DNA of 64,000 nt from an uncultured Gammaproteobacteria bacterium (GTDB taxonomy: Bacteria; Patescibacteriota; Microgenomatia; Levybacterales; GWA1-39-11). Under the pieces are notes generated by a model. That model searched no databases and was not told the DNA's origin. It saw only the letters and a program-made list of their open reading frames with translations. Within the stretch, counting starts at the first letter, position 1. Every line of letters starts with the position of its first letter. This document shows, in pieces, positions 3,316 to 30,432 of the stretch. The translations under genes were made by a program, and so were the position numbers. The stretch is from contig CAYMYC010000002.1 of NCBI GenBank assembly GCA_964394645.1, forward strand, positions 28,105 through 92,104. Direction: 5' to 3'.

Positions 3316-5406
3316 ATGCTAGGACTAGGAAAGAAAAAACAAATAGAAAAAGGTGCACCTGCACAAACGACTCAGGCGGCACCACAAAACGCGCAGGCGC
3401 AAACTACACACGAGGTTGAAAAACTGAAGAACGGATCAGTGTCCCTTATAGATCTTCTTGCTCCCTCATCAGTTGAGGTAGATTTTAAATATATACGCGT
3501 AGGAGACGCATTTTACAGAACCTTTATAGTTATTGACTATCCACGTGAAGTTTCTCCCAATTGGCTTTCAATACTCATAGACTACAAGGAGACCATGAAT
3601 GTGTCTATGTTTATATATCCTGTTGAAAGTCGGGATATTCTCTCCAATTTGAAGCGCAAAATTGGAGAAATGGAGGCAACGATTGAATCTGACATGAAAA
3701 ACGGGATAGAACCTGATCCTAAGGTCAGGGCGTCTCTTGAAGACGCGATAGCGCTGCGTGAAGAATTAGCCCGCGGACTTGAACGATTCTTTCAGTTTGG
3801 ACTCTACGTTACGCTTTCCGCAAAAACGGTTGATGAGCTTGATAAAAAAACGAATGAACTTACTTCCCTACTTGCCTCAAACCTACTTGTCATAAAACCT
3901 GCAACACTCCAGATGGAAGACGGCTTTAAAACAACGCTCCCTCTGGGGGAAGATAAATTATTTATCACCCGAAATATGGATACTACATCCGTTGCCTCAA
4001 CGTTCCCCTTCACATCCTATGAAATATCTCAACCAAATGGTATTTTTTATGGAGTAAACACACTGAATAATTCGCTTATCATAGTGGATCGTTTCTCATT
4101 TGAAAACGCAAATTCTGTTGTCTTTGGAAAATCTGGATCTGGAAAATCTTTCCTGGTTAAGCTTGAGGTACTGCGCCAAATGATGTTTGATACAGAAATT
4201 CTCATCATAGACCCTGAAGATGAATATAGAGCCCTCTGCCACGCCCTAGATGGAGAATATATATCCTTCTCAAAGGACTCTGAAGTAAAAATTAACCCGT
4301 TTGCCCTTCTTTCAGATGACAGAACAGAAGCACAGCTTGGAATAAAATTCCTTGCCCTTCACTCACTTCTTAAAATTATGCTTGGTGAATTTTCCCCAAC
4401 ACAGGAAGCGCTTTTGGACCGCGCGCTCGTGTTGTGCTACAAGCAAAAAGGGATAATTCCTGACCCATCAACTTTTGGACGGGAACCTCCTATTCTTGAG
4501 GATCTATATAAAACTCTTCTAAATATGGAAGAGCCAGACGCAAAGGATCTCGCATTTCGGCTAGAAAAATACATCAAGGGAGGGTTTGCAGGACTCTTAA
4601 ACTCACAAACCAATTATGATGTGAAAAATCAGTTAACTATTTTTTCAATAAAACAACTTGAGGAGTCTCTTCGACCCGTAGCCATGCAGGTGATATTAGA
4701 TTTTATCTGGAATAGAGTGAGAACTAAGTTGAAAAAACGCATTTTAATAGTCGATGAGGCATGGTATCTTATGAAAAATCCTGATTCCGCAGCATTTTTA
4801 CAAGGAATTGCAAAACGGGCAAGAAAATACTATTTGGGAGTTACAACGCTTACCCAGGACATTGAAGACTTTTTATCCTCTGATTACGGGAAGGCAATTT
4901 TATCTAATTCTTCAATGCAGATCCTGTTAAAACAAAATTCTTCGGAGGTAGAAACACTTGCCTCAACACTTAACCTATCAGAGGGAGAAAAGCAATTTTT
5001 ACTAACTGCACAGGTTGGAGAGGGACTTTTTTTTGCAGGGCAAAATCACTTAACAGCTCAATTTCTGGCATCAAATTTTGAGTATCAATTGGTCACCTCT
5101 AAACCACAAGACATTTTAGATGAGGCACAAAGAACAAACACGGGAGCGGCAGAACAATTCATAAAAGAAGCAGACGCGCAGGCAAAAGCATCTTCTGAAA
5201 CAATAGCGACCTCTGAAACTCATACCCCTGTTCCACCCCCATCACAACAGCCTGGCGTTCAACCAATAACACAACAGCCCATTTCCCAACCTACTATGCC
5301 GCCGACTAGTCCTGCGGTCCCTACCCCACCGGCAGCTCAAAACCCACAACAAAATACACCAACAGCACAAGCAGAGATTACGCAAACAAAGATAAATAAT
5401 GGATGA
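3316..5406 (+). CDS. virB4: VirB4/TraE-family type IV secretion ATPase (Gram-positive type) with a Pro/Gln-rich low-complexity C-terminal tail
   Basis: Walker A VVFGKSGSGKSF, Walker B RILIVDEAWYLM and GVTTLTQDIEDF are present. The N-terminal block LIDLLAPSSVEVDFKYIRVGDAFYRTFIVIDYPREVSPNWLS is typical of TraE/PrgJ/TcpF-type VirB4. Confidence 0.8.
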   Translation: MLGLGKKKQIEKGAPAQTTQAAPQNAQAQTTHEVEKLKNGSVSLIDLLAPSSVEVDFKYIRVGDAFYRTFIVIDYPREVSPNWLSILIDYKETMNVSMFIYPVESRDILSNLKRKIGEMEATIESDMKNGIEPDPKVRASLEDAIALREELARGLERFFQFGLYVTLSAKTVDELDKKTNELTSLLASNLLVIKPATLQMEDGFKTTLPLGEDKLFITRNMDTTSVASTFPFTSYEISQPNGIFYGVNTLNNSLIIVDRFSFENANSVVFGKSGSGKSFLVKLEVLRQMMFDTEILIIDPEDEYRALCHALDGEYISFSKDSEVKINPFALLSDDRTEAQLGIKFLALHSLLKIMLGEFSPTQEALLDRALVLCYKQKGIIPDPSTFGREPPILEDLYKTLLNMEEPDAKDLAFRLEKYIKGGFAGLLNSQTNYDVKNQLTIFSIKQLEESLRPVAMQVILDFIWNRVRTKLKKRILIVDEAWYLMKNPDSAAFLQGIAKRARKYYLGVTTLTQDIEDFLSSDYGKAILSNSSMQILLKQNSSEVETLASTLNLSEGEKQFLLTAQVGEGLFFAGQNHLTAQFLASNFEYQLVTSKPQDILDEAQRTNTGAAEQFIKEADAQAKASSETIATSETHTPVPPPSQQPGVQPITQQPISQPTMPPTSPAVPTPPAAQNPQQNTPTAQAEITQTKINNG

Positions 5407-21912: not shown

Positions 21913-21923
21913 ATTATTCAAAG

Positions 21924-21995
21924 TGGCTGGGGTGGGGTTTGAACCCACGACCGCAGGGATATGAATCCTGTGCTCTACCACTGAGCTACCCAGCC
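21924..21995 (-). tRNA. tRNA-Met (anticodon CAU), elongator-type, or possibly the lysidine-modified tRNA-Ile2
   Basis: A cloverleaf was folded by hand. The acceptor GGCUGGG pairs with CCCAGCC, the anticodon loop is UUCAUAU and the T-loop is UUCAAAC. Confidence 0.75.
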
Positions 21996-22051
21996 AAACG
22001 TGTTCTTTATTGTACCAAAAATAGCCTCAAGAAGGAAATTGGGGTAATTTC

Positions 22052-22080
22052 TTGTCCGAAACGGTTGTATTCGTTATAAT
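22052..22080 (+). promoter_or_regulatory. Sigma70-like promoter (TTGTCC, 17-nt spacer, TATAAT) upstream of tRNA-Ser(GGA)
   Basis: There is a perfect -10 TATAAT at 22075..22080, a 17-nt spacer and a 4/6 match at -35. Confidence 0.5.
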
Positions 22081-22086
22081 ATGCAA

Positions 22087-22110
22087 GCTTGGGGGAGTCG
22101 GATAACAACC
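22087..22110 (+). repeat. Partial 5' copy (about 14 nt, 1 mismatch) of the downstream tRNA-Ser(GGA) gene, ending at GGAUA
   Basis: GGGGGAGUCGGAUA compared with the tRNA 5' end GGAGGAGUCGGAUA. It lies in the predicted leader of the tRNA transcript. Confidence 0.5.
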
Positions 22111-22153
22111 ATGATAGTAATCAGAACGTTGACCGATCCTCTGCGTTTTCACT

Positions 22154-22242
22154 GGAGGAGTCGGATAGTGGACCATTCCGATTGCTTGGAAAGCAATTGT
22201 GCTGAAAGGCACGCGCGAGTTCGAATCTCGCCTCCTCCGCCA
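22154..22242 (+). tRNA. tRNA-Ser (anticodon GGA), with a long variable arm and an encoded CCA
   Basis: In the manual fold the acceptor GGAGGAG pairs with CUCCUCC, the anticodon stem is AUUGC/GCAAU, the loop is UUGGAAA, the variable hairpin is GUGCU-GAAA-GGCAC and the T-loop is UUCGAAU. Confidence 0.8.
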
Positions 22243-22244
22243 AT

Positions 22245-22685
22245 CTAACTTTTTACAAGCCTTTCAATTATTGGCATGGCTTCTGTGAACACTTTTTTAT
22301 CTGATTTATAAGTTAATCTTTCCATTACTTTCTCTCTCGGAAGCCATTCTACATTTTCCATCTCATGATCGTGTTTTGTAATATCTCCTCCTGCGTAGCG
22401 CATGATAAAGTAATATACCGTTTTTTTTCTCTTAATTCCTTCCATCATATACCAGTACATGACTGGTTTTACTTCTGTAATAATTTCTCCATCCGCTCCC
22501 GTTTCCTCTTTCACTTCACGCACAGCTGTTTCTTTTTTGCTCTCTCCCTGTAGGTGTTCTTTATCCCCTATTAATCCTTTCGGAAACACCCATCCATGGT
22601 GGAATGAATGCTGTGAGACAAGAATAAAAACTGAGTCGCCTTCAACTTTAAATACTACCCCTCCTGCAGAATATTCAAATATCAT
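22245..22685 (-). CDS. NUDIX hydrolase
   Basis: The Nudix box GESKKETAVREVKEETG (GX5EX7REUXEEXGU) is present. Confidence 0.75.
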   Translation of the reverse strand: MIFEYSAGGVVFKVEGDSVFILVSQHSFHHGWVFPKGLIGDKEHLQGESKKETAVREVKEETGADGEIITEVKPVMYWYMMEGIKRKKTVYYFIMRYAGGDITKHDHEMENVEWLPREKVMERLTYKSDKKVFTEAMPIIERLVKS

Positions 22686-22796
22686 AATACTATTATATCA
22701 TTCTTTAGGCTCAAAAATTGATTTGGAGGTCAAAATACACTAAAATATCACCTACAGTCTGTCCCTTCGTGGTGAGGTAAGACGCGCTTATTGTAT

Positions 22797-22870
22797 GCAC
22801 CCGTAGCTCAATGGATAGAGCATTGGATTGCGGATCCAAAGGTTTGGTGGTTCGACCCCACTCGGGTGCG
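22797..22870 (+). tRNA. tRNA-Arg with an anticodon that reads as GCG (loop UUGCGGA) and is unusual. It is a paralogue of the tRNA-Arg(CCG) 250 nt downstream.
   Basis: In the manual fold the acceptor GCACCCG pairs with CGGGUGC, the D-arm is GCUC-AAUGGAUA-GAGC, the anticodon stem is UUGGA/UCCAA and the T-loop is UUCGACC. Confidence 0.65.
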
Positions 22871-22924
22871 CTTCGATTCTTTAGTGCAGATGTTTCCAGA
22901 TGAGAAAGGAAAGAGCTAGTGAAT

Positions 22925-23009
22925 GGAGGGTTCGCATAGTGGTCAATTGCACGAGTTTCGAAAACTCGATCCCGTAAGGGATTCACAGGTTCAAATCCTG
23001 TACCCTCCG
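22925..23009 (+). tRNA. tRNA-Ser (anticodon CGA), long variable arm
   Basis: The acceptor GGAGGGU pairs with ACCCUCC, the anticodon stem is CGAGU/ACUCG, the loop is UUCGAAA, the variable hairpin is GAUCCC-GUAA-GGGAUU and the T-loop is UUCAAAU. Confidence 0.8.
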
Positions 23010-23058
23010 CTTACATTTTGATTGAATTAAATTTATAAATCCCAAAAGTTGCGAATAT

Positions 23059-23115
23059 GCGCCTGTAGCTCAATGGATAAGGAAACCTTGTCCATTTCGC
23101 AACAAGTGAAAACAT
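23059..23115 (+). repeat. Exact 21-nt copy of the 5' end of tRNA-Arg(CCG) (GCGCCUGUAGCUCAAUGGAUA), then 36 nt of unrelated sequence, directly upstream of the intact gene
   Basis: A direct sequence comparison shows the copy ends after GGAUA, as the Ser(GGA) partial copy does. Confidence 0.6.
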
Positions 23116-23188
23116 GCGCCTGTAGCTCAATGGATAGAGTACAAGATTCCGGATCTTGCGGTTGGTGGTTCGACCCCACTCAGGCGCG
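23116..23188 (+). tRNA. tRNA-Arg (anticodon CCG)
   Basis: The acceptor GCGCCUG pairs with CAGGCGC, the anticodon stem is CAAGA/UCUUG, the loop is UUCCGGA and the T-loop is UUCGACC. Confidence 0.8.
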
Positions 23189-23189
23189 C

Positions 23190-23785: not shown

Positions 23786-24655
23786 CTAGAGTTCTATAAG
23801 AGTTGTGCTTTCTGTTGGTTTAGCGTCTTTAATGTATTGCAGGTAGCGTTCAGTTGAGGAAAGCCGTTTGTGTCCTAAGACTTTGGATAGGAAAGTAAGT
23901 GAAACACCATTTCTTAAATGATGAGCAACAAAGGTGTGTCTAAGATCATTTATTTTTGCATTTTCTATGCCTCCTTTTCTAAAGTACCGCTCTACTGCAT
24001 CTCTTATGTTGCGAACTAAAAATGGCTTTCCCGTTTTTGTAATAAATACATGGTTATCTGTTGTCTCAGGACGTATGGCAAGATATCTTTTAAGCGCGTC
24101 CTTTGCGCGTCTGTTTAGTTGAACATCACGCGCTGCATGCCCCTCATATGGTGCTATATGAAGCGCGTTTTCTTCAACATCATTCATCTTAAGCCCCGCT
24201 AACTCTCCAATTCTAATTCCAGTTTGTAGAAGAACTTCAATAATCGCATACAATCTTGGGTCAACAGAGGCAGCGTCTCTTAAGGCTCTGTATTCTAAGG
24301 GGGTTAATACTCTGGGAGGTGAAAGTTCATATTTTGGATGAGATACAAGCAAAGAAGGGTCATCAGTAACAAATTCATTAACCTTTAAAAATCTATAAAA
24401 TGTTCTGGTAGAGTTTAACTTTCTTGAAAGAGATTTAGGAGTATACCCTTTTTCTTGAAGGCTCGCCAAAAACGCCTGAATATCCTCTGATGTTACATCT
24501 TTAATATGTTCTTTTTTGAGTTCCTCAAGAAAGAACATTAGCTGGTCAATGTCTTTTCCGTATGCTAATATGGTTGCGGATGCACGTTTCTTTGACCTTA
24601 AGAAGTCGTGAAACTTTGCGTGTGCGTCTCTAGTTTTTACTGGATCAGTATTCAT
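23786..24655 (-). CDS. Tyrosine site-specific recombinase (XerC/XerD/phage-integrase family)
   Basis: C-terminal catalytic residues LRHTFVAHHL ... GHKRLSSTERYL (R-H-R-Y) and an N-terminal SAM-like core-binding domain are present, in 289 aa. Confidence 0.75.
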   Translation of the reverse strand: MNTDPVKTRDAHAKFHDFLRSKKRASATILAYGKDIDQLMFFLEELKKEHIKDVTSEDIQAFLASLQEKGYTPKSLSRKLNSTRTFYRFLKVNEFVTDDPSLLVSHPKYELSPPRVLTPLEYRALRDAASVDPRLYAIIEVLLQTGIRIGELAGLKMNDVEENALHIAPYEGHAARDVQLNRRAKDALKRYLAIRPETTDNHVFITKTGKPFLVRNIRDAVERYFRKGGIENAKINDLRHTFVAHHLRNGVSLTFLSKVLGHKRLSSTERYLQYIKDAKPTESTTLIEL

Positions 24656-28760: not shown

Positions 28761-28801
28761 AATCACAATTTGAAGCAAAATATGCCTCAAATTCAGCTGT
28801 G

Positions 28802-28871
28802 TTGCGGGGCCGGGAATCGCACCCGGCCTAGAAGATTATGAGCCTTCTGTGCGGCTTTACACTACCCCGCG
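28802..28871 (-). tRNA. tRNA-Met (anticodon CAU) with a C1:A72 mismatch at the top of the acceptor stem, suggesting initiator tRNA-fMet
   Basis: In the manual fold the acceptor is CGCGGGG/CCCCGCA with the first pair mismatched, followed by U8 A9. The anticodon stem is GAAGG/UCUUC, the loop is CUCAUAA and the T-stem is CCGGG/CCCGG. The exact ends are uncertain by 1-2 nt. Confidence 0.6.
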
Positions 28872-30167: not shown

Positions 30168-30332
30168 TTTTTGAATTAAGAGCGTGTAGATCCCATTTAT
30201 GGGATAACGAGGAGAAGGTCTTTTGCCAACGACGGTAAAAGAGATCGGACCCCACTCACATAAAAAGTGAGGGGAGGATTTGCGGAAACCTTCAGGTTGT
30301 AATGCCAACCTAAAGAATTTTTTAACACTCTT
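30168..30332 (+). ncRNA. Candidate glmS (GlcN6P-responsive) ribozyme in the 5' leader of glmS
   Basis: It lies on the plus strand about 100-260 nt upstream of glmS. An AG-CG(U)G cleavage-site-like start at about 30181 is followed by a P1 hairpin GAUCCCA-UUU-UGGGAUA. The highly conserved core ACGAGGAG, then GG..CGG..GAUCGGACC and a CCCCACUCAC/GUGAGGGG hairpin resemble the P2/P2.1 and P3 regions of Firmicute glmS ribozymes. It was not checked with a covariance model. Confidence 0.4.
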
Positions 30333-30432
30333 TAGTAATAAGGAGAATAAAGAAAAATTTATGCACTACTCGTCTCACTTCCCCAAGGTATTTTTTTTAT
30401 AAATAGCCTTTGTTTTTTTCAATTATTTTTAT

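Follow-up and report, generated by a model that had tools for sequence, protein, structure and literature searches.

Insertion of tyrosine-integrase elements into tRNA genes duplicates part of the gene, usually the 3′ part, preserving an intact copy. In Allomyces mitochondria, double-hairpin elements, which are short GC-rich units of two hairpins, are associated with mobile endonuclease open reading frames (ORFs). Here we analyze two partial copies of tRNA 5′ ends that lie immediately upstream of the intact tRNA-Ser(GGA) and tRNA-Arg(CCG) genes in a 64,000-nucleotide (nt) stretch of contig CAYMYC010000002.1 (GenBank assembly GCA_964394645.1), called the window below, and compare them with a small cassette encoding a GIY-YIG nuclease that is found at tRNA genes of related bacteria. 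The best-supported reading of the two copies is that they are scars left by an element, though not by one mobilized by an integrase. With moderate confidence we regard them as ORF-less junctions, either remnants or non-autonomous relatives, of a minimal GIY-YIG nuclease cassette that invades tRNA genes.

Several described systems resemble parts of this arrangement. Mobile endonuclease ORFs (mORFs) of fungal mitochondria are inserted with a duplicate of the host-gene terminus, and the native terminus is left beside them; such "gene hybrids" involve atp6 in Allomyces and atp6, atp9, cox2 and nad3 in Glomus (PMC3630166). Their nucleases are free-standing LAGLIDADG proteins, with GIY-YIG in atp9, and the host gene stays functional; the distribution is patchy and horizontal transfer has been inferred (PMC3630166). 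Phage T4 segB is a GIY-YIG homing-endonuclease gene inserted between tRNA-Arg and tRNA-Ile and targeting the tRNA region of related genomes (PMC2988022), and segmental amplification promoted by SegB was reported in 2026 (PMC13096335). In prokaryotes, stand-alone Slx1/URI-like GIY-YIG proteins constitute a "minimal variant" of probable repair or structure-specific nucleases, and a fusion of the minimal GIY-YIG to a TrmH-like tRNA G18 methyltransferase has been noted (PMC1564403). A limited literature search found neither a report linking Slx1/URI-like nucleases to tRNA genes, stubs or double hairpins nor a published description of the stub-hairpin-GIY-YIG-tRNA architecture presented here.

Analysis of the window with ARAGORN revealed six tRNA genes, five of which were confirmed by Rfam. 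Two of these, both intact and on the + strand, are preceded by 5′ fragments in the same orientation, here called stubs. Upstream of tRNA-Ser(GGA) (22154..22242, CCA encoded, 52.4 bits in Rfam) a copy of tRNA nt 1-14 with one mismatch (13/14), GGGGGAGTCGGATA, occupies 22091..22104 (+); the repeat is 15 nt long once the preceding T is included. Upstream of tRNA-Arg(CCG) (23116..23189, 62.3 bits) an exact copy of nt 1-21, GCGCCTGTAGCTCAATGGATA, occupies 23059..23079 (+), and the shared preceding AT extends this repeat to 23 nt with a start at 23057. Both copies had been reported in an earlier note on this DNA, and comparison with 100 shuffled sequences, which gave a chance expectation of 0.00 matches in the window for either pattern, bears them out. 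The stubs are separated from their genes by 49 nt (Ser) and 36 nt (Arg). The stub region is base-for-base the same in ten contigs of independent metagenomes, and an assembly artefact is therefore excluded. The same note held that both copies stop at the same D-loop position, which is wrong in tRNA numbering: the shared GGAUA corresponds to nt 10-14 of tRNA-Ser, at the start of the D-loop, and to nt 17-21 of tRNA-Arg, at its end. The Ser copy thus ends at nt 14 and the Arg copy at nt 21, both at D-loop edges, and each end is typical of its own tRNA class in the ORF-bearing cassettes described below.

For comparison we used 80 Levybacteria loci of about 8 kb, anchored on a NUDIX gene and each taken from a different species-representative genome; individual loci are designated by L numbers. 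The larger gaps adjoining tRNA genes in Levybacteria were found to hold ORFs of 80-90 amino acids (aa) with a GIY-YIG domain. In total, 22 small ORFs of the Levybacteria loci matched Pfam PF01541 in hmmsearch, and 21 of them lie at most 100 nt from a tRNA gene, where 6.6 would be expected under random placement. Three of the 22 are truncated and pseudogene-like. The encoded proteins consist of a single domain with the invariant pattern Y...Y.G...R...H...E. When metagenomes were scanned with an alignment built from these proteins, 80 loci were obtained, 44 of which have a tRNA within 200 nt. Where a metagenomic tRNA is located no more than 400 nt downstream of a GIY-YIG ORF, a 5′ stub is present upstream of the ORF in 22 cases out of 34. 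The stubs comprise exactly nt 1-21 for tRNA-Gln and tRNA-Gly, nt 1-12/13 for tRNA-Ser and tRNA-Cys, and nt 1-20/24 in L124. An association of tRNA genes with GIY-YIG cassettes, seemingly undescribed, is probably widespread in bacteria of the Candidate Phyla Radiation (CPR).

The cassettes share a common layout, namely the stub, a pair of hairpins, some resumed tRNA nucleotides, the GIY-YIG ORF and the intact tRNA. A GC-rich double hairpin of 30 nt is inserted at nt 12/13, or a similar hairpin pair follows nt 21. In all seven aligned examples the pairs of the double hairpin are 100% formed, with compensatory changes at 6 of the 12 pairs. In the Levybacteria locus L029, a tRNA-Ser(GGA) stub of nt 1-13 is followed by hairpins, a GIY-YIG ORF and the intact tRNA. 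The Daviesbacteria locus L192 (GCA_016198195.1) contains, in this order, NUDIX, the stub GGAGGAGTCGGAT, a double hairpin, a GIY-YIG ORF and tRNA-Ser(GGA), and it is the occupied counterpart of the window Ser locus. The same layout precedes tRNA-Ser(ACT) in L193. In both L029 and L192 the ORF runs into the tRNA gene and ends at a TAG that is tRNA nt 13-15. At the other window position, L128 carries a GIY-YIG ORF between Ser(CGA) and Arg(CCG), which is the same slot as in the window. The 3′ end can be involved as well: in L024 a tRNA-fMet is followed by a GIY-YIG ORF and then by a 13-nt 3′ stub.

The window leaders can be aligned with this plan. The Ser stub is preceded, about 10 nt upstream, by the sigma-70-like promoter that the earlier note had predicted at 22052..22080 (+); it reads TTGTCC-17-TATAAT, agrees with the consensus at 10/12 positions, and has the spacing from the stub that is expected for a promoter directly before a tRNA gene. 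This region is conserved in L016 and L099; the stub itself is exact in L016, and L099 has the same mismatch as the window. After nt 1-14 of the tRNA, folding and tRNA alignment place a 23-nt hairpin-forming insert at the D-loop position, ACAACCATGATAGTAATCAGAAC (22105..22127, +), the tip of which changes from TGATagtaATCA in the window to TGATCtatGATCA in L016 with pairing preserved. It is followed at 22128..22139 (+) by GTTGACCGATCC, which matches nt 15-26 of tRNA-Ser, GTGGACCATTCC, at 9/12 positions (p ~0.06 by shuffling) and is predicted to pair with the stub as a pseudo D-stem. The last 14 nt, at 22140..22153 (+), form a tail that leads from the pseudo-5′ fragment to the intact gene; in the ORF-bearing relatives L029, L192 and L193, with which it was compared, the GIY-YIG ORF occupies this slot. 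The window Ser leader has a single AT-rich hairpin at the position equivalent to the cassettes' double hairpin.

The Arg leader combines the junction of class I tRNAs at nt 21 with a strong hairpin. In the predicted fold, two parts of the 36-nt spacer (23080..23115, +; also compared with L011 and L016) are paired: CCTTGTCCATT (23086-23096) with the stub D-loop nucleotides AATGGATAAGG (23072-23082), and TTCGCAAC (23096-23103) with GTTGCGAA (23048-23055), upstream of the stub. Predicted folding energies were -23.2 kcal/mol for the Arg leader (z = -4.6) and -20.5 kcal/mol for the Ser leader (z = -2.2). The junctions thus correspond at both loci, nt 14 in the window Ser copy against nt 12-13 in ORF-bearing Ser cassettes and nt 21 in the Arg copy against nt 21 for Gln and Gly. 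The window stubs are taken as cassette-related because these same junction positions flank a nuclease ORF in relatives. Leaders that lack the ORF occur elsewhere too: those of L055 and L090 retain a GC-rich CCCGCC...GGCGGG hairpin, and the L055 leader resumes tRNA nt 22-33 with 9/12 identity. The window copies are almost certainly transcribed within structured 5′ leaders; stub and hairpin would be read from the tRNA promoter and then removed by RNase P.

We scanned 359 tRNA genes from the 80 Levybacteria loci and the window with 13-mers from the 5′ end, the middle and the 3′ end. The 5′-end 13-mers produced 39 matches outside annotated tRNAs, about 27 of them on the same strand and 45-160 nt upstream; the 3′-end 13-mers produced 17, about 12 of them on the same strand and 27-125 nt downstream; and the mid-tRNA 13-mers produced only four, all distant. 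Breakpoints of the partial copies fall in the D-loop, the anticodon loop or the T-loop. The two window copies belong to this pattern, which recurs in Candidatus Levybacteria.

The usual gene order in these loci is Arg(GCG), Ser(CGA), Arg(CCG), NUDIX, Ser(GGA), all on a single strand. The flanking DNA of the window, L011 and L016 is about 85% identical, and the leaders are polymorphic among such close relatives. Among the closest genomes about nine carry a Ser(GGA) leader copy; it is missing from most others and from L011, the nearest relative, which has the same tRNA-Ser gene without the stub. The Arg module occurs once in the window, twice in L016 (before both Arg genes) and three times in tandem in L011; a variant of it is present in L028. 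In non-inverted relatives the Ser stub occupies the usual tRNA start after the NUDIX stop codon, and the distance between Ser(CGA) and Arg(CCG), 4-8 nt in L012-L014, is 105 nt in the window. The position of the Ser stub at a normal tRNA start and the enlarged Ser(CGA)-Arg(CCG) gap therefore indicate that the copies mark insertions. In three lineages the acceptor sequence of the stub matches that of the adjacent tRNA (GCGCCTG, GCACCCG and GCGCTCG).

We propose the following mechanism. A small cassette would lodge in the part of a tRNA gene that codes for the D-loop. The stub would be the displaced original 5′ end, staying at the native promoter/leader position, and the cassette would bring or regenerate a fresh 5′ segment, and therefore the intact tRNA gene would continue downstream. 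Complete cassettes, as found in other Patescibacteria, consist of a stub of nt 1-12/14 (tRNA-Ser) or nt 1-21 (class I tRNAs), then one or two short D-loop hairpins with a few resumed tRNA nucleotides, and lastly an ORF of some 250 bp that encodes a GIY-YIG nuclease of the minimal, Slx1/URI-like kind (about 85 aa) and abuts or enters the intact tRNA. The window versions, made up of stub, hairpin and 14-36 nt with no ORF, would descend from ORF-bearing cassettes; they may be remnants that decayed once the nuclease gene was lost, a course usual for homing endonucleases in their life cycle, or may be non-autonomous relatives. The nuclease would cut empty tRNA alleles, the cassette would spread by repair (homing), and recombination between stub and gene could remove the insert cleanly.

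A number of observations weigh against this reading. Neither spacer, nor any other part of the 64-kb window, contains a GIY-YIG ORF or a recognizable remnant of one detectable by hmmsearch. The window hairpins are AT-rich and have no sequence likeness to the GC-rich double hairpin of the ORF-bearing cassettes. The Arg spacer resumes the tRNA at only 6/12 positions, which is not significant. Within the ~8-kb loci, presence of a stub and presence of a GIY-YIG ORF are not significantly associated (odds ratio 2.2, p = 0.22), and in L057 and L090 a GIY-YIG ORF lies upstream of tRNA-Ser without a stub. The minimal GIY-YIG family has no DNA-binding domain and is not known to home or to cleave (PMC1564403). 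Finally, the 32-nt core of the Arg hairpin, GCTCAATGGATAAGGAAACCTTGTCCATTTCG, is the same in the window, in all three L011 copies and in L016, three species with ~85% identical flanks; being more conserved than its flanks, the core is easier to reconcile with selection or recent spread than with a scar in decay. A selected role of the leader, or its recent spread as a small non-autonomous unit, is possible.

The earlier note described each copy as followed by about 40 nt of unrelated sequence; for the Ser spacer this does not wholly hold, given the resumption of tRNA nt 15-26. A search of the window for the GC-rich double-hairpin pattern, that is, two adjacent 6-bp hairpins in the D-loop, gave no match.

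Sequence identities of the nuclease were read as pointing to mobility. Between CPR classes (Taylor-, Nomura-, Davies- and Wildermuthbacteria) the GIY-YIG proteins retain 60-78% identity, whereas the NUDIX gene beside the L192 cassette is just 42% identical to that of the window. When a Levybacteria GIY-YIG protein was compared with 50,697 phage records by tblastn, no match was found.

Compared with fungal mORFs, the loci studied here share a displaced terminal fragment beside an intact gene and, in relatives (L029, L192, L193 and the 22 metagenomic cases), an endonuclease ORF between the two. They differ in that the hosts are bacterial tRNA genes, that 5′ ends are duplicated as well as 3′ ends, that breakpoints fall in cloverleaf loops and that the nuclease is a minimal GIY-YIG domain of about 85 aa; the window, moreover, has only ORF-less junctions. 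With SegB they share a GIY-YIG gene among tRNA genes, but SegB is a two-domain phage protein and is not known to be accompanied by a tRNA stub or by hairpins in the D-loop. The tRNA-associated ORFs of relatives are single-domain PF01541 proteins that match the Slx1/URI-like minimal variant. The window hairpins differ from the Allomyces double-hairpin elements in being single and AT-rich. Relative to known arrangements, the bacterial tRNA hosts, the involvement of 5′ ends, the cloverleaf-loop breakpoints, the covarying double hairpin and the minimal Slx1-like nuclease appear to be new.

A wider proposal can be put forward only tentatively. A large, undescribed family of minimal GIY-YIG nucleases in Patescibacteria may act as tRNA-gene homing elements that lodge at D-, anticodon- or T-loop positions, use universally conserved tRNA sequence as portable homology arms, ride tRNA promoters and duplicate a gene end to keep the host gene functional. 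The covarying double hairpin might then serve a structure-specific nuclease as a recognition or immunity structure, and the window leaders might be non-autonomous or domesticated forms that still shape pre-tRNA processing.

If the cassette interpretation is true, tRNA genes of CPR bacteria are the habitat of an unnoticed compact selfish element that invades them without inactivating them. It would account for the presence, around tRNA genes, of odd tRNA-like pieces and of leaders and trailers with structure, for local inversions and replacements of these genes, and for the many small genes annotated as "GIY-YIG nuclease family protein" in these genomes. It would also provide a candidate nuclease whose specificity may come from DNA structure or the tRNA cloverleaf and not from a DNA-binding domain. 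The stubs could mark past invasions, and they can mislead tRNA annotation and the prediction of att sites and islands.

Among other explanations we considered plain local partial duplication by replication slippage or unequal crossing-over, leaving neutral leader debris with no mobile element involved; for the window copies this is unlikely. Tandem repeats do occur at these loci. L011 has three tandem 47-nt units before Arg(CCG), each beginning at tRNA nt 10. A 44-nt direct repeat in L013 includes ~30 nt of upstream flank and tRNA nt 1-13, and the copy number of the Arg module differs between the window, L016 and L011. However, tandem duplication requires the spacer to be a copy of sequence upstream of the stub. 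Such a repeat is seen in L013 and L011, and it is absent from the window, so simple tandem duplication was rejected there. Nor would local duplication lead one to expect breakpoints limited to cloverleaf loops and specific for the tRNA class, identical junction classes flanking a nuclease ORF elsewhere, or a strict arrangement in which 5′ fragments always precede and 3′ fragments always follow the gene, without a change of strand. Slippage accounts for the copy-number variation of L011 and L013, but not for the junction classes or the association with ORFs.

A selected pre-tRNA leader structure, acting in processing, stability or regulation (for instance by shielding the 5′ end, or as a decoy or entry site for RNase P), was judged slightly less probable still; its origin might be a co-opted cassette scar. 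The earlier note had raised a similar idea, that of tRNA-derived decoys within the precursor transcript. The stable predicted folds of both leaders, the invariant Arg core, the compensatory change by which the Ser hairpin tip of L016 differs from that of the window, and the match of stub acceptor sequences to the adjacent tRNA in three lineages all agree with it. In addition, a paired change in the second L016 copy of the Arg core turns AAGG/CCTT into AAGC/GCTT, and in L099 the Ser stem gains strength from a U-to-C change. Against it, the leaders are patchy even at ~85% DNA identity, with the Ser leader missing in L011; their copy number varies; and the majority of same-type tRNA genes in Levybacteria are without one. 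Template switching in quasi-palindromes, moreover, is known to yield hairpin changes that look compensatory. A known RNA family or ribozyme was rejected, there being no Rfam match in the leaders or trailers: with the Rfam 15 covariance models, no credible sub-threshold match was obtained in 22081-22153 or 23011-23115, only tRNAs and glmS reached the gathering score, and the leaders of 17 related loci gave no match either. A fold-back or template-switch origin of the Arg hairpin is possible only on the assumption of an additional 17-nt deletion.

We also noted an 8-mer shared by the sequences just before the two tRNA genes, GTGAAAAC/GTTTTCAC. It is kept on the Ser side in L016, but on the Arg side it is conserved in neither L011 nor L016, and the occurrence of the pair before both tRNAs is therefore probably due to chance.

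The weakest explanation is one that the earlier note had raised, that a tyrosine recombinase crossing over in the D-loop left attL/attR-like repeats, and it is very improbable: tRNA genes are classic integration sites and a tyrosine-recombinase gene (23786-24655, -) does lie 597 nt downstream of tRNA-Arg(CCG), in agreement with the ~600 nt given in that note, but the recombinase is Xer-like and its context is conserved also where the Arg(CCG) stub is absent, only 36-49 nt separate the repeats with no kb-scale element between them, the repeated part is the 5′ portion of the tRNA, and viral contigs gave no attP-like match. The best-scoring models for the recombinase were XerC, XerD and XerA (160, 156 and 143 bits, all below cut-off). 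In relatives, also in those whose genomes lack the Arg(CCG) copy, the recombinase holds the same position within a DivIC-recombinase-179 aa-tRNA-NUDIX context; the gene is therefore a resident and not part of an insert. In viral contigs, the search for attP-like matches to both stub-spacer junctions, which the earlier note had suggested, yielded only ordinary tRNAs or a chance match to a coding sequence; plasmids and the sample's own contigs lay outside its scope. Prophages and islands with tyrosine integrases resemble the window in that part of the tRNA is duplicated, the intact gene is kept and a partial copy stands at the other end of the insert; they differ in duplicating the 3′ part, flanking kb-scale elements and carrying the integrase, none of which holds here. 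The integrase idea is thus essentially excluded. What survives of the att-scar suggestion is the idea of an element interrupting the tRNA gene around the D-loop, the same junctions flanking a mobile-looking cassette in relatives; an integrase as the agent is not supported, the gene found there in relatives being that of a small GIY-YIG nuclease.

The neighboring genes in the window encode TrpRS, MurD, MurI, NUDIX, a 184-aa membrane protein, the tyrosine recombinase and DivIC. Named homologues of the NUDIX protein come mostly from Candidatus Levybacteria (Patescibacteria/CPR).

Against the gene order of most Levybacteria, two parts of the window (region 21923-23189) are inverted with respect to NUDIX, each on its own: the Arg(GCG)-Ser(CGA)-Arg(CCG) cluster (22797-23189) and tRNA-Ser(GGA) (22154-22242). 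L016 has both inversions, and L011 has only that of the cluster; in L038, L046, L073, L077 and L087 the cluster or single tRNA genes have flipped independently. An origin of the stubs as inversion scars was rejected: they are oriented as the inverted genes are, and non-inverted genomes have the same leaders. In L016, both tRNA-Arg genes (2904-2977 and 3693-3767) carry the same double stub module within the ~160 nt before them and share their first 26 nt, from which a C4/A69 mismatch arises in the acceptor stem of tRNA-Arg(CCG). This suggests recent gene conversion between the two loci.

Other arrangements of GIY-YIG ORFs and tRNA genes were observed. In L192 (1201-2661), two different GIY-YIG ORFs surround one tRNA-Ser(GGA), upstream and downstream, and an HNH endonuclease gene follows directly; this region is a pile-up of homing-endonuclease-like genes. 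In the Taylorbacteria locus L187 (1462-1760, GCA_002793555.1) a GIY-YIG ORF is followed by the 5′ stub of one tRNA-Ser allele, GGAGAGATGGCAGAGTG, next by a complete tRNA-Ser(GGA) of a different allele, and then by a 3′ stub, CCCTCTCTCCGC, that fits the first allele. Here an incoming tRNA gene seems to have taken the place of the resident one. A second type of junction, from a tRNA 3′ end to a downstream GIY-YIG ORF, is present in L056, L085, L086, L029 and L128. This junction, A[A/G]CGTA...ACG[C/T]TGCTGG[A/G]ACGT...ACGT[T/C]C, is made up of two hairpins whose stems contain ACGT, and it is conserved across tRNA types.

The sixth tRNA of the window, at 28801-28871 (-), is of the initiator type, CGCGGGG...CCCCGCAAC, with anticodon CAT; it was predicted by ARAGORN only and scores below the Rfam gathering score. 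In L019, L024 and L025 a GIY-YIG ORF comes after the orthologous tRNA, and L024 has a 3′ stub there as well; after the window gene neither ORF nor stub was found.

Nested tRNA-Met genes were detected in L033 (4674-4882), L035 (4766-4990) and L024 (4640-4990). In these a complete tRNA lies inside perfectly complementary arms of 14-16 nt that differ by species (CATTAACAATTTGCAG, CATTCAAATTTGATAC and TTTTTAAATTTGTG), and the arms are in turn enclosed by the two halves of an older tRNA-Met, the 5′ one covering nt 1-34/35 and the 3′ one starting TAACGC. The inner and outer tRNA-Met of L035 differ in sequence.

A recurrent trailer module is present at tRNA-Ser and tRNA-Met genes in L017, L025, L035, L038, L047, L052, L056 and L085. 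Its order is a T-stem complement, GAUGAGAAG, one or more variable hairpins, (G)AAA and a copy of the tRNA 3′ end, often terminated by CCA even if the functional gene has no encoded CCA. The module matched no Rfam family, and its identification as a hammerhead from GAUGAGAAG...GAAA was rejected, the CUGAUGA core being missing. Known structured RNAs were also recognized at some distance from the stubs or in other genomes: the Levybacteria locus L014 contains a group I intron at 1032-1241 (Rfam RF00028, 53 bits), and the window carries a glmS ribozyme/riboswitch at 30170-30370 (+) (RF00234, 57 bits), another copy of which is present in L026.

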